The position numbers and the translations under genes are program-made. Below are positions 19,129 to 60,760 of a DNA stretch of 64,000 bases, in pieces (positions within the stretch are counted from its first letter, which is position 1; each line of letters starts with the position of its first letter). The notes beneath the pieces are model-generated. The model ran no database searches. It saw only the letters and a list, made by a program, of their open reading frames with translations, and had not been told where the DNA came from. The DNA comes from a virus (lineage: Duplodnaviria; Caudoviricetes): positions 32,001 through 96,000 of IMG/VR virus record IMGVR_UViG_3300046839_000055. The stretch is one strand, 5' to 3'.

Positions 19129-19905
19129 ACAAACTGGAAGTTGTTTATTAAACCTTTTTAGCCTTAACCAACAACATCATAGGTCTGCGCATTTCATCAC
19201 ACATTCCCGGCATATCCATCATATCTGCCGGAGGCATTGCTTCCTCAATAGCCTCAATTTGGAAACCACATTCTATAAGTGGATTCAATATCTGCGTTAA
19301 TGTGTGGTGCTGTTTAATTACTCGTTGACCAAGAAAATTGGTTTCTCTTCGCCTGTGTAATAGTAATTGTCGACTGGCCAATATTTAGGTTTCCCATTTT
19401 CATCATAAATCCAATCCTCATTAACACCTGCGGTGAAAGTAGGATGTTCAATGTTGAACAGGAAATACCCACCTACTTTTAATGTGCAATACACCTTTTG
19501 ATAAACATTATCTAAATTTTCGATATAGTGCAGTACCAGGTTAGAAATAACTAGGTCATAAGTATTTTCAGGATAAATGTATTCTTCAACACCGCAAACT
19601 TCATACTTGATTTTGTCATCAGAGTTATCAGCTACAGCTTTTGCAATCATTTTTTTACTACTATCAATACCAAGAATTTCAGCAGCTCCCATTTGTGCGG
19701 CATATTTACAATGCCAACCGTAACCACATCCTAAATCCAAAACTTTTTTCCCCTGTAATTCGGGGAATAACGGTTGCAACTGATGCCACTCTCCAGCAGC
19801 TTTCAGACCATATTTGCTTCTTCCCATTTCCGCATATGCGGCAAAAAATTCACTATTATCGTAAATATTTCTCATTGAGAATTACCTCCACAACTCCTGA
19901 TTTTG
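19129..19905. repeat. Inverted pair of 16-bp quasi-palindromic sites bracketing the methyltransferase
   Basis: ACAAACTGGAAGTTGT at 19129-19144; ACAACTCCTGATTTTG at 19890-19905. Confidence 0.6.
19148..19875 (-). pseudogene. Class I SAM-dependent methyltransferase moron, frameshifted
   Basis: VLDLGCGYG motif I; C-terminus (RETNFLG...EMRRPMMLLV) lies in another frame, consistent with loss of 1 nt near 19345-19350. Confidence 0.85.
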
Positions 19906-20119
19906 TCATCTTCTCATTTGATCCTACCAGTCTGATTCATGTCCTTCAATCATTTTATTCCAACGCCTTGTTATCCGTTTTTCACATCGACCACCCTCAA
20001 TTTTCCCCTCTTTTTTCTGTTTACCAATGAGAAGAGATCATTGGTGAAACGGAATTTATCTGGTTTGTCGTCAATCCGAGGATCTCATCTCCAAAGAATA
20101 GTAGGAGGTGGGGATCATA

Positions 20120-20542
20120 ATGACACCCGAACAGAAAAAAGAAATATCAAAACTTCGCGAGCAGGGGCTCGGCTATCAAAAAATCGCTACTGCTCTTGGC
20201 CTTACCAAGAATCAGGTTGTTTCCTATTGCCACAGAAACGGTCTGGATGGAAAAATCGCTAATCCATCAGGAACAGTTCCTGACGCTATCTTCTGCAAGA
20301 ACTGCGGCAAGCCGATCCATCAGAAGCCCGGCATCAAAACGATAAAGTTCTGCTCCGACAAATGCTGTCAGGAATGGTGGAACAAGCACCCGGAAGCAAT
20401 TCACAGGAGGCCAGCCGCTATCTATACCTTCACCTGCGCTCACTGTGGTAAGCCGTTCACGGCGTATGGCAACAACCACCGCAAATACTGCTCGCATGCC
20501 TGTTATATCGCAGATCGATTCGGAGGTGATGGTCATGAATGA
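20120..20542 (+). CDS. HTH + zinc-ribbon protein preceding the recombinases
   Basis: LREQGLGYQKIATALG HTH; CKNCG, FCSDKC, CAHCG, YCSHAC. Confidence 0.8.
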   Translation: MTPEQKKEISKLREQGLGYQKIATALGLTKNQVVSYCHRNGLDGKIANPSGTVPDAIFCKNCGKPIHQKPGIKTIKFCSDKCCQEWWNKHPEAIHRRPAAIYTFTCAHCGKPFTAYGNNHRKYCSHACYIADRFGGDGHE

Positions 20543-20705
20543 AGCTCAGTTTGAGCGGGAAAAACACTACACCGCAAGCATGGAGATGTTCCGGTCAATG
20601 TTGAAGCAGCACCTCATCACGGAGGAACAATTCGTCATAATTGATACAAAAATGAAGGAGAAATACAAGCCGATTTTCGGCGGTTTATGTCCCGAGAAAG
20701 CTTGA
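20535..20705 (+). CDS. Small SHOCT-like protein
   Basis: GGAGGTG RBS; MLKQHLITEEQF..ID motif. Confidence 0.7.
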   Translation: MNEAQFEREKHYTASMEMFRSMLKQHLITEEQFVIIDTKMKEKYKPIFGGLCPEKA

Positions 20706-20753
20706 TAATACGGGCCCCCAGAGGGATGTATAGTGACGGAAAGGAGTGATTTT

Positions 20754-22544
20754 ATGGCAAAGATCACAAAGATTGAGCCGACGATACCGAGCTTACCTAC
20801 TCGTAAGAAAGTCGCCGCTTATGCCAGAGTTTCTATGGAGACCGAAAGGCTCCATCATTCCCTGTCCGCACAGATCAGCAGCTACAGTAAACGGATTCAG
20901 GATAATCCTGAATGGGAGTATGTTGGCGTTTACGCGGACGAAGGGATCTCCGGAACAGGCACAGAAAAAAGGCCTGAGTTTCGGCGCATGCTTGCCGACT
21001 GCGAGGATGGAAAAATCGATATCATCCTCACAAAGAGCATCAGCCGGTTTGCCCGGAACACCGTAGATCTTCTGAATACGGTCCGACACTTAAAGGAGCT
21101 CGGCATTGAAGTCCGCTTCGAAAAGGAAAACATCAATTCACTCTCCGGCGACGGCGAGGTGATGCTCACGCTCCTCGCATCTTTTGCGCAGGAAGAAAGC
21201 GTCAGCATCAGCAACAATGTAAAATGGGGGATCCGCAAACGGATGCAGTCCGGCCTTCCTTATGCCAATGGTCACATGAACGTCTACGGCTATCGCTGGG
21301 AAGGCGACGAAATGGTCATCGTACCAGAAGAAGCCGCCGTCGTAAAGAGAATCTTCCAGAACTTTCTGGATGGGAAGTCGCGGCTGGAAACAGAACGGGA
21401 ATTTGCCGCTGAAGGCATTACTACCCGCCAAGGTTGTCGCTGGGAGGATTCCAACATTCGAAAAGTGCTGGAAAACGTCACCTACACCGGAAACATGCTT
21501 TTTCAGAAGGAATTCGTCTCGGATCCCATCAACAAACATCGCAGGAAGAACCGCGGCGAGCTTCCACAATATTTCGTAGAGAATACCCACGAAGCGATCA
21601 TCGATTATGACACATGGAAATACGTGCAGGATGAAATGGAACGACGCAGAGAACTCGGGCCTCTGGCGAATAAGAGCCTGAACACCTGCTGCTTCACCGG
21701 CAAGATTAAATGCCCATACTGCGGATACAGCTATATGCATGAGCACAGAACGAAGAACGGACATTATCAGGAATTCTGGGTCTGTGGCAGCTATAAGAAA
21801 AAGAAGAAAGGCAATGGATGCCCTGTCGGCGGCACAATCAATCACAAGAATCTGAAGAAAGTCTGCGCGGAAGTGCTGGGTCTTCCCGAATTTGATGAAA
21901 ACATCTTTCTCGAAAAGGTTGATCACATCGATGTTCCCAAGCGGTACGTCCTTACGTTTTATCTGAAAGACGGAACAACAATAACAAAACCGTGTCCGAA
22001 TACCAGCCATCAGGATTGCTGGACCGCAGAGTATCGGGCAGAAACTTCACGGAAGCGCCGGAACAGCCCCAGAGCCAAAGGTGTGACCGCCCTCTCCGGG
22101 CGAATCAAATGCTCTGCCTGCGGCTGCAACTTTCGCCGCTGCACGCAGCCTGCTTCCAATCCGGCCAAACCGAAGATGCACTACTGGCGTTGTGCCGAAC
22201 ACAGCAATGGATGCATTACCGTCGGATTGCGCGAGGATGTTTTGAAACCGCTCATCGCTGAAATGATGGAGATCCCGGAATACGACGAAGAGCAGTTCAA
22301 AAATCAGATGGAAGCCATCTATGTAATGGACAAGGATCTTCTTGAATTTCATTTCAAGGATGGACGCATCAAGACTACACACTACGTTCCTCCGGAGAAA
22401 ACCTTCACTCCACGCAGTGAGGAAGCCAGAGAACACATGCGGCAGCTTATGAAAGATAGATGGACGCCAGATCTTAAAGCTGAGATGGGCGAGAAGATGA
22501 AAAAGATAAGGAGCGAGAAATATTGGAGCAGCAAAAGAAAGTAA
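20754..22544 (+). CDS. Large serine recombinase 1
   Basis: AYARVS, YADEGISGT, TKSISRFARN; recombinase domain; two zinc ribbons. Confidence 0.95.
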   Translation: MAKITKIEPTIPSLPTRKKVAAYARVSMETERLHHSLSAQISSYSKRIQDNPEWEYVGVYADEGISGTGTEKRPEFRRMLADCEDGKIDIILTKSISRFARNTVDLLNTVRHLKELGIEVRFEKENINSLSGDGEVMLTLLASFAQEESVSISNNVKWGIRKRMQSGLPYANGHMNVYGYRWEGDEMVIVPEEAAVVKRIFQNFLDGKSRLETEREFAAEGITTRQGCRWEDSNIRKVLENVTYTGNMLFQKEFVSDPINKHRRKNRGELPQYFVENTHEAIIDYDTWKYVQDEMERRRELGPLANKSLNTCCFTGKIKCPYCGYSYMHEHRTKNGHYQEFWVCGSYKKKKKGNGCPVGGTINHKNLKKVCAEVLGLPEFDENIFLEKVDHIDVPKRYVLTFYLKDGTTITKPCPNTSHQDCWTAEYRAETSRKRRNSPRAKGVTALSGRIKCSACGCNFRRCTQPASNPAKPKMHYWRCAEHSNGCITVGLREDVLKPLIAEMMEIPEYDEEQFKNQMEAIYVMDKDLLEFHFKDGRIKTTHYVPPEKTFTPRSEEAREHMRQLMKDRWTPDLKAEMGEKMKKIRSEKYWSSKRK

Positions 22545-24106
22545 GAACCATTCCGGCCACGCTGACCCGGTTCACTTCTTCCCCGATCGAGGAGAAAAAG
22601 AAGCGCCGGGTCGCCGGATATGCCCGCGTCTCGACTGATCATGACGATCAGTTCACAAGCTACGAGGCGCAGATCGACTACTACACGAATTATATCAAGA
22701 TCCGTGATGACTGGGAATTCGTCAGGGTTTACACCGACGAAGGTATCACCGGCACCAGCACGAAGCACCGCGAAGGGTTCAAACAGATGGTTGCGGATGC
22801 GCTGGCCGGAAAGATCGACCTGATCGTTACGAAATCCGTCAGCCGTTTTGCACGAAACACGGTTGATTCCCTCACCACCATCCGGAAGCTGAAGGATAAA
22901 GGAGTCGAGTGCTATTTTGAGAAGGAAAATATCTGGACCTTCGACGGCAAGGGCGAGCTGCTTATCACGATCATGTCCTCGCTGGCACAGGAGGAATCCC
23001 GCAGCATTTCCGAGAACTGTACATGGGGACAGAGAAAGCGATTCGCTGATGGCAAGGTCACGGTTCCCTTTAAGCGCTTCCTCGGGTACGACCGCGGTCC
23101 GAATGGCGAGCTGATCGTAAATAAGGAACAGGCAGAAACGGTAAAACACATCTACGACATGTTCCTGCAGGGACGGACGTATCACGGAATTGCCAAGACA
23201 CTCACCGAGGAAGGTATCAAATCACCGGGCGGCAAGGATCAGTGGAGCCAGAGCTCCGTCAAGAGCATTCTCAGCAACGAGAAATACAAAGGCGACGCCC
23301 TGCTCCAGAAATCCTACACCGTCGATTACCTGACGAAGAAAACCAAGGTGAATGAAGGCGAGATCCCTCAGTACTACGTCGAAGGAAATCACGAGGCGAT
23401 CATTCCTCCTGAAAAATTCGACATGGTACAGCGGGAAATGGCGAAACGCGGTAAGGGCAAAAAATACCACAGCGGTGTGCATCCATTCTCCAGCAAGATC
23501 AAGTGCGGCCAGTGCGGAAGCTGGTACGGCTCGAAGGTCTGGCATTCGACAGACAAGTACCGCCGGACGATCTGGCAATGCAACCACAAGTACGATGGCG
23601 GCGAGCGCTGCTCCACTCCTCACCTGACTGACGAGCAGATTCAGGATGCCTTCCTGTCGGCGGCAAACAAGCTGCTGGCCACAAAAGACGCAGTCATCGC
23701 CAACGGCAAGGCAATGCTGACGCTCCTCTTTGATACCTCAGAACAGGAAGCCGAACGTGACAAGCTGCTGGAAGAAGCGCAGGTTGTTTCCGATGCTGTT
23801 CAGAAGAACATCTACGAGAACGCCCATGTTGCCCTCGACCAGAAGGCTTACCAGAAAAAGTACGACGGCCTGACCGGACGGTACGAAACGCTCAAGACCC
23901 GCATCGAGGAGCTAAACGACCAGATCAGCCAGCTGCAATCACAGAAAGGCAGCGTCGAGGATTTCCTTGCCGCCTTTGAGAAACTGCCGGAAACCCTGAC
24001 CGCGTTCTCCCTTGACGCATTTAACGCCCTGACGGATTACCTCACGGTCAATGGCGAGGGCGACATCAGCGTAACCTTCCGCAACGGCCAGACCATCAAG
24101 GCATAA
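22523..24106 (+). CDS. Large serine recombinase 2
   Basis: GYARVST, YTDEGITGT, TKSVSRFARN; CGQCG ribbon; coiled coil; TTG start. Confidence 0.95.
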   Translation: MEQQKKVRTIPATLTRFTSSPIEEKKKRRVAGYARVSTDHDDQFTSYEAQIDYYTNYIKIRDDWEFVRVYTDEGITGTSTKHREGFKQMVADALAGKIDLIVTKSVSRFARNTVDSLTTIRKLKDKGVECYFEKENIWTFDGKGELLITIMSSLAQEESRSISENCTWGQRKRFADGKVTVPFKRFLGYDRGPNGELIVNKEQAETVKHIYDMFLQGRTYHGIAKTLTEEGIKSPGGKDQWSQSSVKSILSNEKYKGDALLQKSYTVDYLTKKTKVNEGEIPQYYVEGNHEAIIPPEKFDMVQREMAKRGKGKKYHSGVHPFSSKIKCGQCGSWYGSKVWHSTDKYRRTIWQCNHKYDGGERCSTPHLTDEQIQDAFLSAANKLLATKDAVIANGKAMLTLLFDTSEQEAERDKLLEEAQVVSDAVQKNIYENAHVALDQKAYQKKYDGLTGRYETLKTRIEELNDQISQLQSQKGSVEDFLAAFEKLPETLTAFSLDAFNALTDYLTVNGEGDISVTFRNGQTIKA

Positions 24107-24111
24107 GGAAA

Positions 24112-24155: not shown

Positions 24156-24164
24156 CGTTTTCAA

Positions 24165-30262: not shown

Positions 30263-30267
30263 GGTGT

Positions 30268-30782: not shown

Positions 30783-32174
30783 TCATTTTATTTGTTTCCT
30801 GTCTTTGCTTTCAACGTTCTCTCCCTGCTCTTTGAGGATCATCTCCGCATTTCTTCTCGCATTGGCAAGATCTCTCATCCTCTCTCGAGCCGTGCGGTAC
30901 TGGGCATACTCCGCATTCTTTTCCTTGGCAAGACGGCTGAACTCCTCATTCAGCTCCGCAACTCTTGGAATCTTCTTAAGTCCCAGCTGATCAAAGGCAT
31001 CCTTCGCTGCTTTGTGCAGTGTGATTTCTTCCCGATGGACTTCAAAGAAATTCCTGCTGTACCTTGCCTTCCGGTATGCCGTGTAGATGTCGCGTGTCTT
31101 GCTGTAGTTGATGATATGCATTCGCAGCTCCCGGATCTCCTGCATCCGTTCCTCTTTTTGTTTGATGTCGGAAAGCAGATGATCCGTCTGCGCTGCCGCT
31201 TCCTTTGCAAGCCGCTCCAGTTGCTCATAATCGTGGATACCGTTCTCCTGCAGAAACAGCAGAACTTTTGCCATCTGCTTCAAGTTAAAGACCTTTGCCC
31301 AGCGCTGATAACCAGCTCCCTTGCCCTGCTGAATCTTTTCCTGCAGATCAATCAACAGGTCGATTTTCTGGCGTTTGCCGGGTGTATGCTGCACAGAAGT
31401 TCCCTTCTGTGCGTTCTCCAAGATCTGTATCAGATCCTGTGTCCGGAAGCCCACATGCAGCGAATCAAGGCGGATAAATCGTTTCTGTGCTCTGCCCTTA
31501 ACAGCGATGTGTTTTCCGCGTTTGATCTCGTATCCTTCCTGACGGAGCAAGTCCAGAAATGTCTCCAGGTCTTTCGGTTTCTTTTTCAGGACTTCCGTGA
31601 TCACGGCTTCTAATTCACTGCGGATCGTATGCCGCTTGGGATAGACTGTTCTCTTGTTTCGCTCTGCATAGGGCTTTCTTTGAATGATGCTGTAACCATG
31701 TTCGAAGCAGAGGATATCCGAAAGTCGCTGCAGTGCGATGCCGGAGAAAAAGAAGTTCTTGAACTTATGGGTATGATCAAGATCGATGGAATTGAAGATG
31801 ATATGATTATGGATATGTGTCTTGTCGGTATGCGTTGAGACTGTGAATGCATGTCGTCCTTTGGTAAAACGCATGGCAAGTTCATAGCCTATTTTGTTGG
31901 CATCCTCCGGCGTGATCTCGCCGGGTTTGAAGGACTGCCGGATCTGATATGCGATGATATCCCCCCTGTACTCTCTGCCGGTGATCTCCTGATACTGCCG
32001 CCTTGCAAGCAGGAATTCTTCTGCAGTGGTCTCCGGCTGACACGCATATGCCGTGATAAGCTCTCCGTCTTCCGTCTTTTCCGGATTCTGTGAATATTCA
32101 AGCCGCTCATGCATGCTTGCAGATGCACCTTTACTCTTGTTCACATGCAGAGCGATCAGTCTTGTCGCTGCCAT
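30783..32174 (-). CDS. MobP-type relaxase
   Basis: Y.QNPEKT, AYQIRQSFKPGE, HTDKTHIHNHIIFN three-His motif. Confidence 0.95.
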   Translation of the reverse strand: MAATRLIALHVNKSKGASASMHERLEYSQNPEKTEDGELITAYACQPETTAEEFLLARRQYQEITGREYRGDIIAYQIRQSFKPGEITPEDANKIGYELAMRFTKGRHAFTVSTHTDKTHIHNHIIFNSIDLDHTHKFKNFFFSGIALQRLSDILCFEHGYSIIQRKPYAERNKRTVYPKRHTIRSELEAVITEVLKKKPKDLETFLDLLRQEGYEIKRGKHIAVKGRAQKRFIRLDSLHVGFRTQDLIQILENAQKGTSVQHTPGKRQKIDLLIDLQEKIQQGKGAGYQRWAKVFNLKQMAKVLLFLQENGIHDYEQLERLAKEAAAQTDHLLSDIKQKEERMQEIRELRMHIINYSKTRDIYTAYRKARYSRNFFEVHREEITLHKAAKDAFDQLGLKKIPRVAELNEEFSRLAKEKNAEYAQYRTARERMRDLANARRNAEMILKEQGENVESKDRKQIK

Positions 32175-36687: not shown

Positions 36688-37046
36688 CGGGTTTCAGTTG
36701 TTGCCGCCACTTCCACAATAGATTCCTTGCCCTTTGCTTTCTCCTTCTGAAGATCGAACAGATGCCCGTCAATCTTTCCGATCAGATCACTTGCTGCAGA
36801 GCGGATCGTCTCAAGCGATGCCTTCAGCTCTGTCGTTTCACGTCCCGTGGACCAACCGGCGATATACCCGAAGGAGTAGTCCGAGGTTTCAATGCCGTAA
36901 TGCTGGCAGACGGTATAGGCAACACTCTCCGCCTCAAATGGATACATTAACATTTGAGGCGTTATACTCAGCATTCCAAAATGTTAATCATTTTAAAGAA
37001 TGCTGAGAAATAAGACGTTTTACTACTAAAAAATGAGCATTATTCG

Positions 37047-38084
37047 TTAGCGCAATCCACAAAGTCTTGCCATTTCATCTTCGTTGCCCTCCCACATTGG
37101 TGCTTCATCAGATACAGGTGTTGGAACAGATTCCATTGCGTCTCTAAGCTGTTCAACCGATGGCTTTGCATAGTAGCTTTTGGTTGTATCAGTTCTGGCA
37201 TGTCCTAATACTGTAGAAACAAGCTCAATGGCGATTCCATCCTGATAAAGATTTGTGGCTCTGGTCCGGCGGAACATGTGACAGTGAACCGAATTCGGAA
37301 GGCTAATCCCTGTTTCACTGACAAGAGCTGCATATTTTTTTATAATCCGCTGGACATTTCCAACGGACATCCTGTCTGTTACACCTTTTATCGTTGTGGA
37401 AAATAAATATGCTTCTTTGGAAGAATTACTGTGATATACACGTATATATTCCCTAAGGTGTTCGACTGCTTTAGCTGTTAATTGTATGGTTCTCTCTTTG
37501 TTACCTTTGCCGGTTATGAAAATATTGGGATATTTTGATTCCATTGCGATATCACATAAGCGAATGTTAAGCAGCTCACTGATTCTTACAGCTGTATCGT
37601 AGAGAAGAATCAAAATAGCACGGTCTCGTACACCGAATTTCGTATTCGGCGGTGCGGACAGTATTGCAGCAAGTGCATCATCGGACAGAATAGGTTTTTC
37701 TTTTTTAATGGTTTTGCATGGTGAGATCTGACTGATTGCCAGGGCAACTGATTGGATTGATATGTCCATATCCGAGGCATAGTTCAGATAGGCACGGATA
37801 GCCGCAACTCTTACATTTACAGTGGATGGCTGGCTGCCATTTGCAAGCAGATATTCTCTAAAATTATAAATACATTCTTTGGTGCAATCGGAAAACTGAA
37901 AGGTACTTATGGACTTACCTAATTCACCTACAAGGTAGTTTTTAAATATTGTAAGGGAATCCCTGTAGGATTCTGCTGTAGCCTGACTGCGCCCGGCCTG
38001 CTTTACCAAATAAACATTTAGAAAGTTCCATGTTTGAGAAAAGAACAGCTGGTCAGTCGATATCTTTGCTGATTTATTCTTCAT
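37047..38084 (-). CDS. Tyrosine recombinase, RitC-like
   Basis: AVRISE, GKGNKER, HMFRR, LGHA...T..YY. Confidence 0.93.
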   Translation of the reverse strand: MKNKSAKISTDQLFFSQTWNFLNVYLVKQAGRSQATAESYRDSLTIFKNYLVGELGKSISTFQFSDCTKECIYNFREYLLANGSQPSTVNVRVAAIRAYLNYASDMDISIQSVALAISQISPCKTIKKEKPILSDDALAAILSAPPNTKFGVRDRAILILLYDTAVRISELLNIRLCDIAMESKYPNIFITGKGNKERTIQLTAKAVEHLREYIRVYHSNSSKEAYLFSTTIKGVTDRMSVGNVQRIIKKYAALVSETGISLPNSVHCHMFRRTRATNLYQDGIAIELVSTVLGHARTDTTKSYYAKPSVEQLRDAMESVPTPVSDEAPMWEGNEDEMARLCGLR

Positions 38085-39042
38085 AGGGAATCACCTCCGG
38101 AATGACCTTTCCAGACACTGAATCTTTCTCTCGGATAGTATCAAATGCCTTTTCTACAAGATGATAGTAATAATACGTTTCATCAGGACTTTTGTGTCCA
38201 AGGTATCTGCTTAAATATGGGAGCATAGTGTTTGTATCAATTCCCTGATGCATCCACTCATTAAATCTCTCTACTACAAAAGCATGGCGTAAACAGTGGG
38301 GTGTCGGATGTTTATCAATCATCTTGGCAACCGGAAGCATAGCCCAATGGCGGTTAAAACTTGATTCCACTCCAGAGCACGAAACAGGCTTATGTGGATC
38401 TTTTCCCGGAAAAGCCCAGTCAATTCCGGGGAAAAGCATTTCCTGATGTTCTTTATAGTTTTTAAGTACCGGAAGGCTATCCTGTGGAAGATATACAAGG
38501 CGGTCCTTGTTACCTTTTGAGCCAAGGACAGTAAGGATTCCTTTATCCAAGTCTATGTGCTCCCATTTTAGCAATCGCCCTTCTGACAGACGCAGACCAC
38601 AGCAAAATAACAAGAGAAAAAGAATCTTGCACTCTCTATCGAGTCTAAATTGTTCTGAATTATGAGACGTGCGGATATCCATTTTCTGTAGCAGTTCCTT
38701 AACTTCCTCTTTTGATGGAATGTAAAGAACCGGACGATAAGCCTTGCAGAAAAAATTAGGAATGTATGCTTCCTGACCAAGGGAAAGAATATATTCACTC
38801 AGCACTTTCACTATCGACATACGGCGATTATGATAGGCATCTCCTTCGCCTGGTCTGGCTTCAGACCATTTGGCTGCCATTTCATAGGTGACTGTTGTCA
38901 GTTCCGGATAATTCTGTACGCAAAAGGTATCAAAGCGTTTTAACAGCTTTTCTTCGGAATTATAGGCATATCCATCAGCTCTCTTTTGCTGTATAAGTCC
39001 TTCGATATGATGTGCCAGACCGCTCTCAAAAATGTATGTCAT
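38074..39042 (-). CDS. Tyrosine recombinase, RitB-like
   Basis: GLRLSE, HCLRH, LSRYLGH..PDETYYY. Confidence 0.93.
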   Translation of the reverse strand: MTYIFESGLAHHIEGLIQQKRADGYAYNSEEKLLKRFDTFCVQNYPELTTVTYEMAAKWSEARPGEGDAYHNRRMSIVKVLSEYILSLGQEAYIPNFFCKAYRPVLYIPSKEEVKELLQKMDIRTSHNSEQFRLDRECKILFLLLFCCGLRLSEGRLLKWEHIDLDKGILTVLGSKGNKDRLVYLPQDSLPVLKNYKEHQEMLFPGIDWAFPGKDPHKPVSCSGVESSFNRHWAMLPVAKMIDKHPTPHCLRHAFVVERFNEWMHQGIDTNTMLPYLSRYLGHKSPDETYYYYHLVEKAFDTIREKDSVSGKVIPEVIPYEE

Positions 39043-40940
39043 GATAAAACACCTCCAAATTCCAGAGGGCAGAGCCTCATTTTATCTTCGTCACGTTCAA
39101 GATATACCTCAGCAGTTTCCTGACGTGCATGCCCGAGAGCATTAGAAATATCATCAAGTTTGTTGTCTGCCCGAAGCATTCTTGTGGCAAATGTTTTTCG
39201 TGTCATATGAAAGCCCTGACCAGCAGATAATTCAAATCCATATTCAGCAAGTATTCTTTTTAAAGCTCCACGGCACGCCGTTGTAACTTTAAGCGGGAAA
39301 TATGGTGCCTGATGGCGGATAAATATATATCCGTTGCCTGTGACAGCCGATTCCGGGCGTCCATTCATGATGTATTTATATACTGAATTACCTACATCTG
39401 TTGGAACTGGAAGCGTTATTGCTTTTCTTGTTTTCTGCTGAATGAAAGAAACCGTTTTGTTTTTCCAGTCAAAATCATTTACCTGAAGCTTTAGGATGTC
39501 TGCTCCCCTGATACCCATTCGAAGTCCAAGCATGACCATGGCTGTGTCCCTGAGTTCCATGGGAGTAGAAGCTTTCTCACGATATTCATATATTTTCTCG
39601 ACCATATCATCGCTCAGAACATCAACTATGCTGCGATGAGGAGCACAGCTTGCAGATACTGCAAAAGCAAGTGTTGGTGAAATCAGATCCTGGTCAGCCA
39701 TGTACCGTAGAAGCTGACGAAGCTTGGTTCCATATGCATTTTTACTTTCCGGGGTCGAATGGACATCATGGTTATGAAATGCTTTAACTACATCGGGTGT
39801 TATGGAAACTGGATTATCTATTCCATTGTCTTCAAGATATTTGAAGAAACGGCATCCGGCTGCCCTGCACATGGTAAGTGTCTTATCGGTCATTCCATCC
39901 CGCCTGCGGCTTTCTATGAAACCATCAAGGATGCTTTTACTCCATGATGGAAGATGATCAGACGCACGCTTCGGCTCAGCGATTATGTTGGATTCCATTA
40001 TGCCCTGGAGATACTTTTCAAACATTCTGATAGTGTGTGAACGATGAGCTGATACGGAACAGCTGGCTTTGATCTGATTCGGACAATCCGGAAGTATATC
40101 TATCCATGATGTCACAGTTCCTGCCGAGTGTTCCAGATGGTTAAGTTCCAGGAACATGAAATACCATGTGAAATCATTGCGATAAACAGCTTTTGATGAT
40201 TCCCTATATTTCCAATCGTCCAGAGCGTCAAGATATTCATCAGCTTTAAGCTCAAGAGGTACACTCGGATGAAATGCGGTACCTGTTTTAGAAAGTCTCA
40301 TATTAAGCAGTTTTTCAACGTTCTCACCAAAAAGAACCAGCTGATAACACTCTGGAACATCACCTCTGCGGTGAAGATATTTCATAAGTGCTGTCATGGC
40401 ACATACGGCGTTCTGACGTCTGGCAAGAGATTTACGGGATTTGCAGTAAGTATTCCAGTATTCGATAAGAGTATCTATTGTTATTGCTTCCGGCTCTGTA
40501 ACTCCAAGGGAAGTAGCAAGCCTAAAGAACTCTTTGATGGCAACAGAATACGTATGGTAATAGCAGGGATTCTGTGTGGTCGCATAGTATTCTTCCAACT
40601 CATATGTCAGGCGAAAAAAGGATTCCGACATTCCGCTTCGGCAGAAAAAACTGTCTTCTGAGCGGCAGAAAGAATTTTTGATATTTCCAAAGAGCAGGTA
40701 ATGCTCAAGACGGAACAGGGCATTTCTATATTGAGAACACGTCTCATGGGAAATTTCCTGTTTTTTAATCTCAAGCCAGTCCAGTGCGGCATCCATTGAA
40801 AAAGGAATGCCCTTATCCATCAGGTACTTGAAGAGTGTAGTATAACAGGTTCTGTGCATGTCTATATTTTTACATGCACTGTCTGGCTGCTTCATCATAT
40901 TAAGAACTGATGAAATAGCATCTAAATAGTTTATTTGCAT
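39039..40940 (-). CDS. Tyrosine recombinase, RitA-like (long N-terminus)
   Basis: GIRGAD, QQKT, HMTRKT, LGHARQETAEVY. Confidence 0.93.
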   Translation of the reverse strand: MQINYLDAISSVLNMMKQPDSACKNIDMHRTCYTTLFKYLMDKGIPFSMDAALDWLEIKKQEISHETCSQYRNALFRLEHYLLFGNIKNSFCRSEDSFFCRSGMSESFFRLTYELEEYYATTQNPCYYHTYSVAIKEFFRLATSLGVTEPEAITIDTLIEYWNTYCKSRKSLARRQNAVCAMTALMKYLHRRGDVPECYQLVLFGENVEKLLNMRLSKTGTAFHPSVPLELKADEYLDALDDWKYRESSKAVYRNDFTWYFMFLELNHLEHSAGTVTSWIDILPDCPNQIKASCSVSAHRSHTIRMFEKYLQGIMESNIIAEPKRASDHLPSWSKSILDGFIESRRRDGMTDKTLTMCRAAGCRFFKYLEDNGIDNPVSITPDVVKAFHNHDVHSTPESKNAYGTKLRQLLRYMADQDLISPTLAFAVSASCAPHRSIVDVLSDDMVEKIYEYREKASTPMELRDTAMVMLGLRMGIRGADILKLQVNDFDWKNKTVSFIQQKTRKAITLPVPTDVGNSVYKYIMNGRPESAVTGNGYIFIRHQAPYFPLKVTTACRGALKRILAEYGFELSAGQGFHMTRKTFATRMLRADNKLDDISNALGHARQETAEVYLERDEDKMRLCPLEFGGVLS

Positions 40941-42288
40941 ATCAAATGCGCTCCTTTCCGGTTTCCCATTCGAAGAGAAACCTAATAATAGCGTATCTGA
41001 TAATGCTCATCTTTTTTACAAGAAAGTGAGGATTTATGGGAAATAATTTAAAAAATCAACATTATAAAAACATGGGTATAATGCCTGTACCTCTTTCGTC
41101 CTGGCATCCACATCTTCCTTGTCTTTTCCTGCATGGGGCGTTGCATGAGCGATCTCGTGAATCAGTGTCTTCACGGTCTGGATCTCGCTCATGCCGCTCT
41201 GAATGGCAATCCGATTATCCGCGGTATGAAAATACCCCTTGGCACCTCCCCGGATCTCTTCAAAGCCAACCGGAACCGGCGAGGTTTTCTCCAGCGCAGT
41301 GAGCAGACTGCTGTACCCATCGACGGATCCGATCAGTTCTTCGGTGCCAAGCGTTGGAAGCTCTTTTCCTTCGGTCTGGCTGATATCAAAGACCGTCGCA
41401 ACCCGGAAAGAAGGACGTTCCACCTCCACGGTTTCTTTCTTCGGTTTGCCGTCTGTATCCAATAGAGGCTGCCTTGTCTTTGGATCAATGACATTCTGCT
41501 CCGTCTTGACCTTATACGGTGCCGGTGCAATAATCTTGATCCCCTTTTCGCCGCGCTTTACCTGCCTGCCATGGTTTTTCTTCCACGACTGGTACCCGGC
41601 AACAAGCGTGGCATCCGGTTTCTGCATGCTGATGAGGATCGTATTATTCAAAGAATAGTTGTGGAACTTAGCCATGGTGGCAAGATACTGTCGGTACCTC
41701 TCACTGTTGAACAGATCGTGAACCCCCTGTTCCAGCTTGTCCGTGATCTCTGCGATGGTCTGCTGCGGCTTCTTCGCTGCAGGTTCCGATACCGTCTCTG
41801 CGCCAAGATGAAGATCCGACACATCTCTGGCATATTCCAGAGAAGGAACCTTTAATATTTTGTTTTCCTGAAACGAGTAGTAATGATCGTCATTGCCGAT
41901 GATGATATGGTCCACAATCGGTGTTCCAAGCAGCTCACAGATCTTTGCCATGCGGTCCGTCAGGGAAATATCATCCGGAGACGGCGTAAGGTTTCCACTC
42001 GGGTGGTTATGAAACAGCATGACCGATCCTGCGTTGGAGAGAATGATGCTCTTTAGGATCTCCCGCGGATGCGCAAGTGACTGGTTTAGTGTCCCGATGG
42101 AGACAATATTCATGTTAATTGGCTTCAGATCATTCCGAAGATTCACAACCGCCAGCACTTCCCGGTCATACCCCCTCAGCGTTTCCGACATCAGCCGGAC
42201 GGCGGCCTGCGGAGAGTTGACCGGTTCCGCGCTATAAAGCGGCGGCTCCTTGACCATCCGGATACCTACCTGATCCAGCTTATAGGGT

Positions 42289-54851: not shown

Positions 54852-55047
54852 TTCGTGTCCCTCCTTTCGCTAATTGGTGGATGGGGTGGCGTTTTACCAC
54901 CTCATTTTGGGCAGAAAAAAAGCAGGAGACCTTTTTCAGATTTCCTGCTCGGTGTGCCACTGTGTGAGCGGCGGGTATTTAGTTGTAAAAGTTCGGGACA
55001 AGTTGACCCGATGTAAAGCTAACAAACTGGAATTGCACCAAAACAAT

Positions 55048-55593: not shown

Positions 55594-55807
55594 CTATATT
55601 TTACCTCCACAAATTACGATTTTCTTAATTCTACAAACTGGAATTTGAGTCTCTGTAAAGCTGGAATTAACCCATACAATTATTTTAATTTAGAGGTTCT
55701 TACGCAATTATCCGTATTTTGTAATTTTTCAATACTGGAATGCCAGTGTAAATCAGCATTCTCCATTTTTATTAAAGCGAAAAACGTAAAATTGCGGAAG
55801 AACCAAT

Positions 55808-57268
55808 TTAGATATTCACAATTTTACTTGCCACAGTATCTCGAAAAACACTGTCATGTTCTACCAGGAGCATGGTCGGGGCAAACTCCGTTATGAGTTG
55901 TTCAATCTGCATACGTGAGTACACATCAATAAAGTTGAGCGGTTCATCCCATACATACAAGTGTGCCTTTTCACAAAGGCTTTTCGCAATTAGGACTTTC
56001 TTCTTTTGCCCGCCAGAAAAGTCTTTAATATCCTTTTCAAACTGTACACGCTCAAAGTCCATTTTCCTAAGAATTGCCTTGAACAAACTTTCATCAAGGT
56101 TGTTTTCTTCTGCAAACTCGGAAAGGGTTCCACATAAATACGATGTATCCTGTGGCACATAAGAAATTACAAGCCCAGAGCCAAGTGTTACTGTACCCGT
56201 ATAATCTATGGACTGCCCGACTACCAACTTTAACAGGCTACTTTTGCCACTGCCGTTCTTTCCATCAAGCACAATGCGTTCTCCCTGTCTTATTTCAAAC
56301 GAAACGGGTTCACAAACTGAAATGCCATCATAATAAACTACTACATTCGATAATGATGCAAGCAAATCTGTATGGTAATTAAGCGGTTGTATCTTGAGGG
56401 CTTCTGCGGTTTCCATATTTTTCAGCAATGCTGATTTTTGTTCGATTGTCTGTTGTTGTCTCGCTTCTATAGATTTTGAACGCTTCATCATTTTGGCGGC
56501 TTTATGACCGACATAACCTTTATCTGCTGCCCCAATTTTGGAAGCTTCTACACGTTCAGACCATACTGCAGCGCGTTTTGCCGACTGCTGTAATCGTCTG
56601 ATGTCCTTTTGCAAACGTTCGTTCTGAGCCAGTTCAAATTCTTGCTGTCGCTCAAAATTTGACATCCATGATGAAAAGTTTCCTCTTTGCACTTCGATAT
56701 TCGCTCGGTTAATCGATAGAATATAGTCAACACAATCGTCAAGAAAGCGACGATCGTGAGAAACTAAGATGAATCCCTTTTTCTTTTTCAGATATGCCGC
56801 CACACTTTTTCTCGCTTTGGCATCCAAATGGTTGGTAGGTTCATCAATCAGTAGGAAATGCCCTTCATTAAGAAAAAGAGCGGCAATCAAAACCTTTGTC
56901 TGCTCTCCGTTGGAAAGTGTTTCAAAAGGTCGCCAAAGCACATCGACATCAACATCAAGATAAGAAAGTTCTCGCATAAGTTCCCATTCTTCCGCAAGTG
57001 GGCAAATCTCCTGCAATATATCCTCTGTAATACGATTCTTATCTGAAACGGGATAAGGAAAATAATCAAACTGTACGGATGATAGGATTTTTCCACTATA
57101 CTCATATTTCCCAAGCAGAAGATTCAGAAAGGTTGTTTTACCTCGTCCGTTTCTGCCCACAAAACCAAGCTTCCAATCGGTATCAACCTGGAAACTGACA
57201 TTTTCAAAAACATTATCATAACTTGTCGGATATGAAAACGTAAGGTTTTCAATTTTAATCATTGACAT
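55808..57268 (-). CDS. lsa: Lsa-family ABC-F ribosomal protection protein
   Basis: FQVDTDWKLGFVGRNGRGKTT, LSNGEQTK, DKGYVGHKAAKMMKR linker, second ABC domain, no TM; resembles Lsa(B)/(E) from memory. Confidence 0.9.
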   Translation of the reverse strand: MSMIKIENLTFSYPTSYDNVFENVSFQVDTDWKLGFVGRNGRGKTTFLNLLLGKYEYSGKILSSVQFDYFPYPVSDKNRITEDILQEICPLAEEWELMRELSYLDVDVDVLWRPFETLSNGEQTKVLIAALFLNEGHFLLIDEPTNHLDAKARKSVAAYLKKKKGFILVSHDRRFLDDCVDYILSINRANIEVQRGNFSSWMSNFERQQEFELAQNERLQKDIRRLQQSAKRAAVWSERVEASKIGAADKGYVGHKAAKMMKRSKSIEARQQQTIEQKSALLKNMETAEALKIQPLNYHTDLLASLSNVVVYYDGISVCEPVSFEIRQGERIVLDGKNGSGKSSLLKLVVGQSIDYTGTVTLGSGLVISYVPQDTSYLCGTLSEFAEENNLDESLFKAILRKMDFERVQFEKDIKDFSGGQKKKVLIAKSLCEKAHLYVWDEPLNFIDVYSRMQIEQLITEFAPTMLLVEHDSVFRDTVASKIVNI

Positions 57269-57324
57269 AAATATTATCCTCCTTTGCATGTCATACGATA
57301 CAAAGTCGGTTCGGTGAATGTTTA

Positions 57325-57662
57325 CTACGTATAGATTTCACCAAAAGGAACCGACACTATACGGAGTGAATCATGTGTAACTATCTGTTCTGCACTATTC
57401 ATAAAGCACCTCCAAAACAAAATAAGAGCCACAAGAAAGTTTATCCTTGCAGCTCGTCATAGCATAAAATAACACCACTAAGCAAAAGTGGCAACAGCAC
57501 TATATTGAGTAAGATAGACATATAACTTTCTTGCAATAGACACAATAATGCCAAAGTATAGCACTACCGCATATTTTGATTTTATTTGCAAGAAAAGTTA
57601 ATCATCTTCCCACCTCTTTCTAAATTTCAAAATATTATACCATAAATCGCAGGCAAATACAA
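57325..57662 (-). promoter_or_regulatory. lsa promoter and ribosome-dependent attenuator leader
   Basis: TTGTAT-17-TATAAT; uORF MINFSCK (57605-57582); terminator 57426-57455 plus U tract; second uORF 57402-57325. Confidence 0.8.
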
Positions 57663-57972
57663 GTGGTTATAAAAATTTAACAAATCGCTTATAATACAAT
57701 CATATAACTTTACGCATTCCTTACTGACCGTAAAATTCCGATTTATTGCTGACTTTATTATACTTTATTGCCTATCGAAAAGATAGCATATTTTATGAAA
57801 CTTGTCGGCTGGGAACAGCTTGCAACGCAAGGTGTCCCCAGATGACAAGTCCACAAAAGGGTAGCTGGCGGTAGCCAGCGCAGGGGAAGCGTAGCGTCCC
57901 CTGTATGATTTGGAGCAGACCATGACTGCGAAAAATCACAGCCCTCCGGCAAGGAGCCTTCGGAGAACGCAA

Positions 57973-58007: not shown

Positions 58008-58014
58008 TAGTAAA

Positions 58015-58311: not shown

Positions 58312-58645
58312 GGGCAGCGTCCTCCTTTCCCGGTATCAGCACATAAATCCTGTTTGGTTCTCCAACGCCCTGACGCACTCGCATGATCAGTCCGGCGGTT
58401 TCCAGTTCATTCAGAGAACGCTTGACCGTCATGGGGCTGCGGGACAGGACTGCGGCAATGGCTGTGACAGGGAAGCAGATAAACAGGATTCCGTTCTCGT
58501 CCTCCTGTCCGTTGGATAGCATAGCGTCCAACATCCGGCAGTACATGACCTTTGCGGTGCTGCTGACTGGAAATCCTGTCAACGCTCTGGGAAAGGGCAT
58601 ACAGGGCGGCAACGGTGTGCCTATCGTCATAAATTCAAAATTCAT
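58304..58645 (-). CDS. RepA_N-like winged-helix protein
   Basis: AKVMYCRMLD, DENG..FI.F, ELETAGLI.RVRQG.G.PNRIY. Confidence 0.7.
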   Translation of the reverse strand: MNFEFMTIGTPLPPCMPFPRALTGFPVSSTAKVMYCRMLDAMLSNGQEDENGILFICFPVTAIAAVLSRSPMTVKRSLNELETAGLIMRVRQGVGEPNRIYVLIPGKEDAALA

Positions 58646-58830
58646 TCGGTGTGTTCCTCCTTTTTCTTTGCTCTTTTGGATAAATAACGGGGGCAGTCAA
58701 CCACAACCGCCCGGAAGCTCTGCTTGCACCCATGCTTGCATTTCCGGCATAATTCGTTGTAAGTGACACGCCCCCGGTCATTGAGGTAAAAAGAAAGCTC
58801 ATGCTTCCTCTTTTTGCTCATTCTCGGCAT
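58642..58830 (-). CDS. Small Cys-containing protein
   Basis: YNELCRKC.H.CKQSFR; coupled to the next ORF. Confidence 0.6.
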   Translation of the reverse strand: MPRMSKKRKHELSFYLNDRGRVTYNELCRKCKHGCKQSFRAVVVDCPRYLSKRAKKKEEHTE

Positions 58831-59313
58831 ATTGCGTTTCCTCCCGTTTTAGTGTATAGTTTCGGGGCGATTTTCGGCAAAATTACGGTCATAGAGCCGT
58901 CTAAAATCTCCAGAAGTATCAGCAATAGGGTAGACTATCCCCCTATCAGATTGTCGTGTTTCGGTATCATTTCGGTATCAGTTCGCCAGTTCTCCCCGGT
59001 GTCGTTCCTCCCCTGAATCTCACAGCGGCGTATTGCTCCCTTTGGTACGCTCGTTTCGGTCAGGGTTCCTCCATATCCCTGCCAAAAGTCATGGCGCTAC
59101 ATCGCCGGGGAAGCATATCCCACACAGGCTGGTCATTCGATTGGAATAATCCATCGATGAACTACCTGTATCATAGAACATTTTTGTGCCCTGTGCCGTA
59201 TGTCCACAAAGTAGGAATTAAGGGTAAAAATCAGAAATTTCCACGATTGCGGAAAGTATGATACAATCCAGTTAAGCGGCAGTAATGAAACCGCCGGAAA
59301 GGAGCGTGCGCCC

Positions 59314-60120
59314 ATGAAAGGAGCGACAAGCATACAGGAACGCCTTTGGGAACTCCGCAAGGACAAAGGCTTAAATCTGGAAGAATTATCAGAGCTGACG
59401 GGCATTTCCAAATCAGCTCTTGGCAGTTATGAAAAAGAGGATTATAAGGAAATCAATCATGGCAACCTTATCACGCTGGCAGACTTCTATGGGGTTTCCG
59501 TTGATTATCTGCTGTGCCGGACAGAGAACCGGGAGCAGATCAACACGCCACTAACAGAGCTGCATTTGAATGATGAGATGGTGGCACTTCTGAAAGGCGG
59601 TCGGATTAACAACCGTCTGCTCTGTGAGCTTGCCACTCATAAGGACTTTATCAAGTTTCTTGCGGACATTGAGATTTATGTAGATGGGATTGCCACCATG
59701 CAGATTCAAAACCTCAACGCCCTTGTCGATACTGTCCGGCATGAAATCATTGAACGGTATCGCCCCGGCGAAGACGACCCGCATTTGAAAGTGCTGCAAG
59801 CCGCCCATATCAGCGATGATGAATATTTCAGCCACATGGTTCTTGATGACCTCAATCTCATTATCCGGGATATTCGGGAAGCCCACAAAAAGGACAGCGA
59901 GAGTGCGCCCCAGACCACCGTTGCCGATGAATTGAAAGAAAATTTGGAAGCGGTTGAAAATTTCAAGGGCAGTCGGGATGAAAAGCTGGTTGTCCTTTAC
60001 TGCAAGCAGCTCGGCATCAACTATAAAAATCTGTCAGACGAAGAATTTCGCTGGCTCATTCGGATTCTACAAAAATCAAAGAAAACAGGAACTCCTATCA
60101 GTCAAAGGAAAAAACGGTAA
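59314..60120 (+). CDS. XRE-family HTH regulator
   Basis: LEELSELTGISKSALGSYE...LADFYGVSVDYLL. Confidence 0.9.
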   Translation: MKGATSIQERLWELRKDKGLNLEELSELTGISKSALGSYEKEDYKEINHGNLITLADFYGVSVDYLLCRTENREQINTPLTELHLNDEMVALLKGGRINNRLLCELATHKDFIKFLADIEIYVDGIATMQIQNLNALVDTVRHEIIERYRPGEDDPHLKVLQAAHISDDEYFSHMVLDDLNLIIRDIREAHKKDSESAPQTTVADELKENLEAVENFKGSRDEKLVVLYCKQLGINYKNLSDEEFRWLIRILQKSKKTGTPISQRKKR

Positions 60121-60125
60121 AGAAA

Positions 60126-60169
60126 AACCGCTGTTGCATGGTTGTGTTTGCTTCCATGTAGCAGCGGTT
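60126..60169. terminator. Hairpin between the convergent XRE and lnu genes
   Basis: AACCGCTGTTGCATGG...CCATGTAGCAGCGGTT. Confidence 0.65.
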
Positions 60170-60203
60170 GGTGCTATACTTATTCAGTTAAAATTTCAAA
60201 GCG

Positions 60204-60760
60204 ATAAAGTGGAATTTATCTTAGAAATTACAGCAATGTTATTTTGATAAACTTTCAAGAATTGAAATATCATGCTTATCTTTATCTCTTAATTCATAAC
60301 CTGAATGGAAAACTCTTTGGCCTTTTAAGGATATACAAGGAATTGTTTTTCCTTCAAAAAAAGCACTACCAAAGTAATCTTTTTCAAACTCATACCAGCC
60401 ACCCTCTAAATCAGCTTGTTTTGAAGTTCCGTCCTCACTTAAAACGAACGGGTGAATGTCTAAGTAACCAAGTTCATCACTATATAACTCTATTCTAACC
60501 GGTTTCCAGTCTGTATCAATTTTATAGCCCAGATTCAAAAGCACATTTAACAATTTTTCCGTATGTTGAGCATCAAAATTTATATCTATATCTCTATGAA
60601 TTCTTGTTTGTTTACCAGCTAAAATATCTACACCCCATCCGCCATCCAACCAGTATGTAATTCCAGTATTTTCGAATAATTCTATTACTTTCATTAAATC
60701 TTCTTTTGTTGTTATTTCTTTTCTACCCATACAAAGTCTCCTTTACAACTTCTAATTTGT
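60204..60760. repeat. Inverted pair of 16-bp sites bracketing lnu
   Basis: ATAAAGTGGAATTTAT at 60204-60219; ACAACTTCTAATTTGT at 60745-60760. Confidence 0.65.
60239..60730 (-). CDS. lnu: Lincosamide nucleotidyltransferase, Lnu(A)-like
   Basis: TYWLDGGWGVD, HRDIDI.FDAQHT, GYLDIHP, IPCIS...Q..FHSGY match Lnu(A) as remembered. Confidence 0.85.
   Translation of the reverse strand: MGRKEITTKEDLMKVIELFENTGITYWLDGGWGVDILAGKQTRIHRDIDINFDAQHTEKLLNVLLNLGYKIDTDWKPVRIELYSDELGYLDIHPFVLSEDGTSKQADLEGGWYEFEKDYFGSAFFEGKTIPCISLKGQRVFHSGYELRDKDKHDISILESLSK

Follow-up and report, generated by a model that had tools for sequence, protein, structure and literature searches.

The window analysed here, a stretch of 64,000 nucleotides (nt) that corresponds to positions 32,001 to 96,000 of the IMG/VR virus record IMGVR_UViG_3300046839_000055, comprises parts of a prophage and of an integrative and conjugative or mobilizable element (ICE/IME). 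It harbors four cargo genes, one in the prophage and three at two places in the ICE/IME, and each of them is enclosed by two copies of a short quasi-palindromic site in inverted orientation (Table 1). In the following, a cargo gene with its two sites is called a unit and its place in the backbone a slot; 5' and 3' refer to the sense of the gene. The four genes encode a class I S-adenosylmethionine (SAM)-dependent methyltransferase, a P-loop kinase resembling CPT, an ABC-F protein of the Lsa family and a nucleotidyltransferase resembling Lnu(A)/Lnu(AN2). A preliminary description, made from the sequence alone, had called this cargo AT-rich and mutually unrelated and proposed that the units are gene cassettes; the G+C contents of 0.32-0.41, compared with about 0.50 in the surroundings, and the domain matches agree with its account of the cargo. 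The present study concerns the sites, the exchange of cargo between them and the nature of the system to which they may belong.

Table 1. Coordinates of the putative slot promoters, sites and cargo genes in the window.
Feature	Position	Strand	Remarks and basis
Slot promoter of the prophage slot, extended -10 TGGTAGGAT	19921..19929	-	15 nt outside the 5' site; direct reading
5' site of the methyltransferase unit, CAAAATCAGGAGTTGT	19890..19905	-	abuts the ribosome-binding site (RBS) GGAGG; direct reading, position weight matrix (PWM)
Class I SAM-dependent methyltransferase gene	19150..19875	-	Pfam Methyltransf_11 at 8e-20; first open reading frame (ORF) 19875-19318
3' site of the methyltransferase unit, ACAACTTCCAGTTTGT	19129..19144	-	3 nt past the stop; direct reading, PWM
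3' site of the kinase unit, TGCAATTCCAGTTTGT	55022..55037	-	boundary between cargo and MobQ backbone; direct reading
CPT-like P-loop kinase gene, 181 aa	55048..55593	-	Pfam AAA_18, CPT, Zeta_toxin
Composite lsa/kinase junction: 3' site TCAAATTCCAGTTTGT, 8-nt spacer, 5' site GAAAATCGTAATTTGT, RBS	55609..55648	-	direct reading
Body of the lsa unit: leader of about 460 nt and Lsa-family ABC-F gene	55808..57730	-	probable start 57268, stop 55808
5' site of the lsa unit, ATAAATCGGAATTTTA	57731..57746	-	direct reading, PWM
Slot promoter of the DUF3847-MobQ slot, -10 hexamer TATAAT	57757..57762	-	10 nt outside the first site; direct reading
3' site of the lnu unit, ATAAATTCCACTTTAT	60204..60219	-	direct reading, PWM
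Lincosamide nucleotidyltransferase-like gene, Lnu(A)/Lnu(AN2) family	60239..60730	-	Pfam PF10706 at 2e-60
5' site of the lnu unit, ACAAATTAGAAGTTGT	60745..60760	-	abuts the RBS AAGGAG; direct reading, PWM
Slot promoter after TnpV, extended -10 TGGTAGAAT	60768..60776	-	7 nt outside the site; direct reading

All eight 16-mers reported in the preliminary description were recovered exactly at their positions by direct reading of the minus strand in gene sense. They represent a 16-bp quasi-palindrome of 5-6-5 architecture with the consensus ACAAA-YYGGAA-TTTGT, and their number is far above chance. A PWM of the eight sites placed in one orientation, applied with the median leave-one-out score as threshold, yielded nine hits in comparison with 1.4 +/- 1.2 (maximum 6) in random sequence generated by a first-order Markov model. 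The window contains three exact copies of the 11-mer TTCCAGTTTGT, each after a cargo gene, and these are the only ones in the whole 158-kb contig. With up to one mismatch it has seven matches in the window; the mean of the shuffled sequences was 1.13 and none of the 100 shuffles reached seven. A longer sequence, TTCCAGTTTGTAGA, is common to the downstream side of the methyltransferase and lsa units and is matched by the kinase unit up to TTCCAGTTTGT, and TTGTGGAGGTAA is shared by the upstream side of two units. The PWM scan assigned the four upstream sites without exception to one strand and the four downstream sites to the opposite one, thereby bearing out the inverted arrangement that had been described. 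The hairpin stems of the sites are weak and AT-rich, and no known RNA family was matched anywhere in the window. The ninth, weak PWM hit at position 61488 was rejected as a cassette site, since it is the TTGTGAnnTCACAA palindrome at a TGCTATAAT promoter. This palindrome, TTGTGATTTCACAA (61473-61488, minus strand), overlaps the TGCTATAAT promoter just upstream of the HTH_26-TnpV operon and looks like an operator.

The -10-like hexamers that had been noticed outside the first site of each slot are located as described, and two of the three proved to be extended -10 motifs (TGGTAGGAT and TGGTAGAAT). A -10 or extended -10 motif is present 7-22 nt outside nearly every first site that we read, and none of them obtained a score in the consensus promoter scan, which requires a -35 box and does not score extended -10 motifs. 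The earlier proposal that the cassettes are mostly promoterless is appropriate for the methyltransferase, kinase and lnu units and has to be modified for lsa. The leader of the latter contains promoter-like and attenuator-like elements as well as terminator-like hairpins (57493-57473, 57455-57426), and its sites are remote from the gene, the upstream one about 460 nt before the start codon and the downstream one about 160 nt past the stop; lsa is therefore not a bare promoterless ORF. The Lsa protein exceeds the cut-off of the NCBIfam model ABCF_Lsa_all (771.6 versus 750 bits, alignment from residue 8), whereas the lnu product remains below every cut-off for a named allele (NCBIfam LnuAN2, 252 versus 340 bits). 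The methyltransferase gene proved upon translation to be interrupted by a frameshift behind residue 185; its C-terminal portion continues in another frame up to the 3' site, and the split gene represents either a pseudogene or a sequencing error.

The comparison of homologous slots documents that the cargo differs while the backbone is retained. A relative of the prophage (L132) has flanks that are 94-96% identical on the endolysin side and on the recombinase side and that enclose a different cargo of 1.4 kb. Its break-points with the window are located inside both sites, at 19142/19143 and 19896/19897. The break in the 5' site (slash) reads ...ACAAAATCAG/GAGTTGTGGAGG, i.e. ...ACAAA(A)TCAG/..., and the slot promoter and the outer half-site are kept in L132 despite the different cargo. 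The break in the 3' site reads .../A(A)CTTCCAGTTTGTAGAG..., and from (A)ACTTCCAGTTTGT on the site and the downstream flank are common to the window and L132. Two further loci (L137, L138) look like unoccupied versions of this slot, but their flanks are only 68% identical and thus too diverged to define an ancestral site. The right flank of the ICE had no match in the viral contigs.

The DUF3847-MobQ slot contains lsa and the kinase in the window, a GNAT gene and a kinase variant in Enterococcus faecalis, and a CPCC gene with a hypothetical gene in Vescimonas. All three agree in the promoter and the outer half-site (...gTATAATaaagtcagMaATAAATC...). On the right side, the window and Vescimonas share the 3' site followed by AGCTTyACATCGGGTCAACTTGTCCC, and the GNAT gene of E. 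faecalis is followed by a junction of the lsa/kinase type that is 97% identical over 65 nt. A promoter-anchored search recovered this slot from at least 116 metagenome contigs, and at least six different first cassettes diverge directly after ATAAATC; among the matches listed, CPCC was found 54 times, lsa 44 times, a third cassette 11 times and the others once each. The site centre is always AGGAA before CPCC and always GGAA before lsa. At the right end of the slot at least eight different last cassettes meet a constant backbone, nearly all of them within sites, and two last cassettes with differing inner parts have the outer TTTGTTAGCTTT and the MobQ backbone in common. These contexts follow a simple rule, according to which the outer ACAAA (or ATAAA) stays with the slot and the inner TTTGT (or GTTGT) travels with the cargo, the 6-bp centre being a mosaic that is bound to neither.

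Conversely, the same cargo is found in many contexts. The lnu unit has a counterpart of 98.9% identity in the pTet-type plasmids of Campylobacter jejuni, and the match (window 60758..60202) is delimited exactly by the outer edges of the two sites. Within the assembly collection, about 19,000 blocks contain the exact Lnu protein. It is located after TnpV, after TnpW, in a prophage or near an IS91-like gene pair, with breaks at or inside the sites. The TnpV and TnpW (L111) contexts part exactly at the outer edge of ACAAATTAGAAGTTGT, and L111 has another -10-like motif (TGATATCAT) in place of TGGTAGAAT; in the prophage context (L113) the break lies inside the 5' site. On the 3' side, identical lnu genes continue past ...gatAAA with TTCCACTTTAT, TTCCAGTTTGT or TTGCAGTTTGT. 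The occurrence of the lnu unit in other backbones, for which the preliminary description had advised to look, was hence established for Campylobacter plasmids, for the TnpV and TnpW contexts and for a prophage. The exact kinase is represented in about 19,500 blocks and at least five contexts, which makes it one of the most widespread cassettes. Its unit is 99% identical in the Campylobacter coli plasmid NZ_CP066028, located there behind the genes for a TnpX-like serine recombinase and TnpV, and is also found in many Campylobacter resistance clusters, and a variant of about 89% identity resides on an E. faecalis plasmid. Five different centres were observed in the 5' site of the kinase (CGTAAT, CGGAAT, TTAGAAT, CGAAAG, CGGAAG), each followed by TTGTGGAGG. 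Some of these kinase 5' arms are also used by lnu, and one of them is the lnu arm in C. jejuni.

Several observations on the kinase are reported here in their own right. Across the loci L121-L130 it is nearly always placed among APH, ANT(6), sat4, ermB and cfr(C), i.e. genes for resistance to aminoglycosides, lincosamides and macrolides, and the 181-aa protein may itself be a drug-modifying kinase. In the Clostridioides difficile plasmid pCd13_cfrC (L006, 1275-3530), aph(3')-IIIa and cfr(C) are located between the kinase 5' site with the N-terminal codons and the C-terminal end of a kinase variant with the 3' site; the resistance pair is therefore situated inside a split kinase cassette. In a 6.8-Mb genome (L122, L123, L125; 3046-3960), a gene of the Methyltransf_11 family comes after the kinase, and behind it are an erm-type rRNA methylase and omega-epsilon-zeta; the junction in these three loci consists of a variant 3' site (CAATTCCCATTTAT) without a 5' site.

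The explanation that we prefer, with a probability of about 0.65, is a conservative site-specific exchange at the inverted 5-6-5 sites by an unlinked enzyme, which amounts to a gene-cassette system that is widespread among the mobile elements of Clostridia from gut and rumen. It would include the export of resistance genes to plasmids of Enterococcus and Campylobacter. A cargo unit usually comprises an RBS, one small gene and a few nt past the stop codon between two inverted sites. Either a -10-type promoter lies just ahead of the unit, which then occupies an expression slot, or the unit follows another one in a short array of uniform orientation. In the proposed mechanism the exchange would occur inside the sites, the ACAAA half being kept by the slot and the TTTGT half moved with the cargo, and the mosaic centre may be the trace that a conservative recombinase would leave upon cutting the two strands in a staggered manner, 6 bp apart. 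Given inverted sites on both sides of a unit, the outcome would be the replacement of a cassette or an exchange via cointegrate and resolution, as proposed for the pdif modules of Acinetobacter, and not a simple excision. The recombinase would be a dedicated one, act on double-stranded DNA and be encoded in trans.

Some of these observations might also be expected of non-autonomous transposons resembling miniature inverted-repeat transposable elements (MITEs), with terminal inverted repeats of 14-16 bp and a transposase encoded elsewhere, that land beside promoters or one another. A unit is indeed bounded by the same sequence in inverted copies, both sites are completely contained in the lnu unit that matches Campylobacter, and its TnpV and TnpW contexts separate at the outer edge of the 5' site. 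A transposon should nevertheless carry its ends along, whereas the outer half-sites of the prophage and DUF3847-MobQ slots stay with the backbone when the cargo changes, and identical genes are associated with different site centres and outer halves. There is no target-site duplication around the units, and all units have one orientation, with an insertion point in the slot that is identical to the nucleotide. We thus consider an origin by transposition quite unlikely.

A second alternative dispenses with a dedicated enzyme. The sites would then be conserved expression signals, i.e. the 5'-untranslated and RBS context and an element after the stop codon, and the exchange would be brought about by short-homology or RecA-dependent recombination or by template switching between co-resident elements. 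This scenario agrees with the lack of a recombinase linked to the units and with the 5' site directly abutting the RBS in most of them, and it is in line with published Campylobacter circles, which comprise neighboring genes of these clusters and arise by homologous recombination between duplicated genes or insertion sequence (IS) copies, the sites being unmentioned (PMC10770853). However, 16 bp are very short for a homologous exchange, yet the break-points of the prophage and DUF3847-MobQ slots are confined to them. One and the same sequence surrounds unrelated genes by the dozen in several families of Clostridia and Erysipelotrichales, which requires a mechanism of spreading, and the stems are weak, AT-rich and without a match to an RNA family. 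Moreover, a unit without any ORF exists, and an insert resembling the DNA next to an IS91-like gene pair is located inside or between sites. On balance this alternative is unlikely, and site-specific exchange at the sites remains our preferred reading.

The distribution of the sites beyond the window was investigated on the basis of composite junctions, which are composed of a 3' site, 8-13 nt and the 5' site of the following unit. A degenerate pattern of this structure, run on species-representative contigs, was found in at least 100 of them, mostly from Oscillospiraceae, Lachnospiraceae, Ruminococcaceae and Erysipelotrichales. Those 57 contigs that scored at least 28 bits against the junction profile are referred to as strong loci; they mostly belong to Oscillospiraceae, Lachnospiraceae, Ruminococcaceae, Eubacterium, Roseburia, Faecalibacterium and Erysipelotrichales. 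The lsa/kinase junction of the window has 33.9 bits against the same profile (nhmmer). The remaining pattern matches are mostly from non-Bacillota and look like chance matches, thereby providing a background. An ORF on the same strand ends before the site, at a median distance of 3 nt, in 33 of 47 strong loci and in four of 37 probable chance matches, and an ORF starts just past the site in 27 of 49 and six of 38, respectively. The arrays consist of two to four single ORFs of 140-270 aa, all of them co-oriented, and units without an ORF occur as well. Their cargo comprises GNATs, glyoxalase/Ble proteins, alpha/beta hydrolases, peptidase S51, DUF1706, YjbR, CPCC and other DUF proteins, dfrF, lnu and lsa. 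Co-oriented and mostly promoterless single-gene cassettes were thus found to recur in different arrays. An Enterococcus faecium plasmid has composite junctions between dfrF, a hypothetical gene and a DHFR-like gene. Each array-bearing genome contains one or two exact junctions and arrays of one to four units, the longest of which is chromosomal and located directly behind the genes for RNase R and SmpB.

In Candidatus Stoquefichus massiliensis (L328, G001:C3:109000-121000), the reverse strand at about 9278-10900 encodes a GNAT, an alpha/beta hydrolase, an ORF-less unit and MerR. This array lies on the chromosome about 570 nt past smpB, and the region past smpB is a classic island hotspot, where a tmRNA gene would be expected.

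The junctions have a length of 34-41 nt, and some of them are a single site. They are conserved in sequence, with variable flanking positions. Their two arms can pair at the variable centre in only 18-25 of the 57 strong loci without covariation, and the complementarity of the outer arms is trivial because both arms read AAAT...ATTT. A more palindromic type B, AATTTCAGTTTGTC-N5-GACAAATTCCAATTT-GTCGAA, has its two centres in direct orientation (L008-L107, e.g. L098:1668-1710 and L063:2387-2430). It is usually present as a single junction after a gene and often without a following RBS, and three contigs of one metagenome-assembled genome (L038, L057, L071) have the 40 nt upstream of the type-B junction in common.

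The likeness of the arrays to integrons and to clusters of attC sites lacking integrases (CALINs) is extensive. Both systems comprise single, mostly promoterless genes in co-oriented arrays behind a promoter (a putative one in the present case), the same gene in many arrays and different genes at one position, a cargo rich in GNATs, glyoxalase-type and resistance genes and genes without an assigned function, ORF-less cassettes, many arrays without an adjacent enzyme and, probably, other mobile elements that insert into the sites. The junction could accordingly be imagined as a miniature attC site that folds as a single strand and is served by an IntI-like tyrosine recombinase encoded elsewhere, and the partial complementarity of its arms would fit this view, as would integrase-less attC clusters, which reportedly exist. 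The centre, however, pairs in a minority of the junctions and without covariation, and it is the primary sequence that is conserved and not the structure: the sites have 16 bp, in contrast to the attC hairpins of 55-140 nt that are conserved in structure, and a junction is short or even a single site. An integron cassette would be expected to break at one end of the junction, whereas the break-points observed here fall in both arms, every unit is enclosed by two inverted sites, the centres of type B are direct and not inverted, and the arrays do not exceed four units. No IntI was detected; the 20 ORFs scanned in the window lack a tyrosine recombinase, and no protein family recurs near the 57 strong loci. 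Complete integrons are, to our knowledge, not found in Bacillota. A true integron therefore is a very improbable explanation in comparison with the double-stranded exchange that we favor.

The enzyme was sought in the neighborhood of the sites. The 20 ORFs of the window that were scanned (three slots and the prophage-ICE junction) include no tyrosine recombinase and two large serine recombinases. The latter are encoded by adjacent, overlapping genes (20733-24106, plus strand; 603 and 527 aa) about 0.85 kb from the methyltransferase unit and represent the integration module of the prophage. TnpX-like genes head some of the arrays (in C. coli and, ahead of TnpV, in L116, L118, L120 and L130). 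The tyrosine recombinase of the IS91-like gene pair was dismissed as a candidate for this role: of five array-bearing genomes, one encodes a close relative (49% identity), three have generic Xer-like matches and one has no match. The preliminary description had postulated a recombinase that acts in trans and is not evident in the window. No recombinase family recurs near the 57 loci; an unlinked enzyme would be the simplest reading of this result, which is compatible with such an enzyme without proving it.

A number of results weigh against the exchange by a dedicated recombinase and have to be set against the evidence presented so far. Searches of all ORFs of the strong loci with phmmer revealed relatives of the large serine recombinases, both proteins of the window taken together, in one of the 57 loci, TnpV in two, DUF3847 in one and the MobQ relaxase in none. 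Clustering of 1,037 neighboring ORFs yielded no family in more than seven loci, and those that reached this number are repeated cassettes. Backbone-anchored patterns retrieved no empty slot with a gap of 2-32 nt, neither for the prophage slot in viral contigs nor for the DUF3847 slot in metagenome contigs; no fused half-site was encountered in the 1.44 Mb of DNA that had been fetched, and no circular cassette was found in the fetched DNA or in the contig scans. Every gene has been seen in one orientation, although inverted flanking sites would invert the units and not excise them. The conservation of the 3' site is partly imposed by the sampling pattern, in which this site is fixed, and the metagenome contig counts are not independent events, since a few successful elements dominate them. 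Finally, the expectation of the preliminary description that homologous elements should diverge at the sites is matched by the prophage and DUF3847-MobQ slots and not throughout: no more than a degenerate 3' site is present at 16 of the 55 right ends in the DUF3847 slot, and the TnpV slot of Vescimonas and Subdoligranulum contains a DUF3658 gene instead of lnu. The latter swap is larger than the distance between the sites and lacks a 3' site; therefore not every difference in a slot was made at the sites.

Among the known systems, the pdif modules of Acinetobacter plasmids resemble the units in their geometry. Here as there, accessory modules without a recombinase of their own are bounded by short inverted sites, their movement is deduced from one module in different plasmids, and a model of two crossovers or of cointegrate formation and resolution fits the arrangement. 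The pdif sites themselves are XerC/XerD sites of 28 bp with an 11-6-11 structure, and neighboring modules share one site, with alternating orientation. The units described here differ by their 16-bp 5-6-5 core with variable flanks, which has no evident link to Xer, and by two sites per junction, the 3' site of a unit being separated by 8-13 nt from the 5' site of the following unit. The earlier statement that the motif matches neither attC nor pdif is hence upheld by the sequence-conserved 16-bp core and the lack of hairpin covariation. The system works like an integron or like pdif modules and is a member of neither.

Transposons of the Tn4451/Tn4453 family have a different relation to the sites. 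TnpV (PF14198, 3e-42) is encoded directly upstream of the lnu unit of the window, and a MobA/MobL relaxase is present; the position of lnu directly after tnpV corresponds to that of catP in Tn4451. The window has a coupling protein of a type IV secretion system and a Maff2-type backbone, and not TnpX, upstream of TnpV. TnpX acts at the ends of the transposon, and 55 of the 57 junction loci are without TnpV and 56 without a large serine recombinase nearby. Elements of the Tn4451 type appear to be vehicles of the cassettes and not their mechanism. Arrays of orphan immunity genes that are associated with a recombinase have reportedly been described in Bacteroidales, as have polyimmunity loci. They likewise are rows of small, co-oriented accessory genes of gut bacteria in which intergenic sequences are repeated. 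They are said to differ by an adjacent Xer-like tyrosine recombinase and a cargo of immunity genes, whereas the arrays studied here have no adjacent recombinase and mainly encode small enzymes and resistance proteins.

In Gram-negative bacteria, integrons account for a large part of gene capture and of the accumulation of resistance. We know of no equivalent that has been recognized for Clostridia and their relatives, which prevail among the anaerobes of the gut and constitute a large reservoir of resistance genes. Our search of the literature retrieved no description of a corresponding cassette system; the motif strings matched unrelated items only, and the term "integron-like" is used in PMC8138268 exclusively for IntI. 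We see an even chance that the sites belong to a distinct gene-capture system of Bacillota, in which single genes are swapped among slots on prophages, ICEs/IMEs, plasmids and chromosomes at a double-stranded 16-bp 5-6-5 site by a recombinase that is not located beside the arrays and belongs to no family yet tied to gene cassettes. Such a system would play the role that the integron has in Proteobacteria and provide a route for resistance genes of gut commensals to Enterococcus and Campylobacter.

The genes lnu, lsa and dfrF as well as GNAT-type and kinase genes are delimited by these short sites, be it in prophages, in conjugative elements or on plasmids. Within multidrug-resistance clusters of Campylobacter plasmids, units of lnu and of the kinase are present with 98-99% identity, and variants with the same junction reside on an Enterococcus plasmid. 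The sites would offer a simple sequence handle for the annotation of cassettes and for tracing the flow of genes from commensals to pathogens. Their recognition would explain the common leaders and tails of unrelated accessory genes and make the identity of the enzyme a directly testable question. The specific contribution of the window is the following. It presents single-unit slots behind putative promoters in a prophage and at two places of an ICE/IME, together with population-level swapping in one slot; it gives the rule for the halves of the site that are kept by the slot or borne by the cargo; and it provides a direct link to the resistance clusters of Campylobacter and Enterococcus.

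The sites are in addition interrupted by foreign DNA in several genomes. An ORF-less insert of 156 nt is located within CAG-TT-TGT of the 3' site in the dfrF arrays of four genomes (L016, L061, L088, L103), at the junction between dfrF and the gene that follows. It is flanked by TT on both sides, while the uninterrupted site has this TT once, and in L027 the downstream unit occurs in another context that starts at /TGTATGG. In L117 (2380-2500) the 5' site of lnu is cut (/AATTAGAAGTTGT) and abuts foreign DNA, in L119 (2992-3300) its 3' site is cut (AAATTC/), and in both loci the IS91-like gene pair, which consists of a Y2 transposase and a tyrosine recombinase, lies about 300 nt from the cut site. 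A stretch of 45 nt in the hairpin at the start of the 156-nt insert matches the DNA abutting the lnu 5' site in L117 with 96% identity; the insert had no match in L119. Based on this resemblance, the cassette sites may be the insertion targets of another mobile element of the IS91-like type, comparable to the IS1111-attC elements, which target attC sites.

A last observation concerns the conjugative element of the window. Three genes on the minus strand (36800-41200) form a block with a G+C content of 0.39-0.45, whose borders are devoid of cassette sites, and this block appears to be cargo of another kind.

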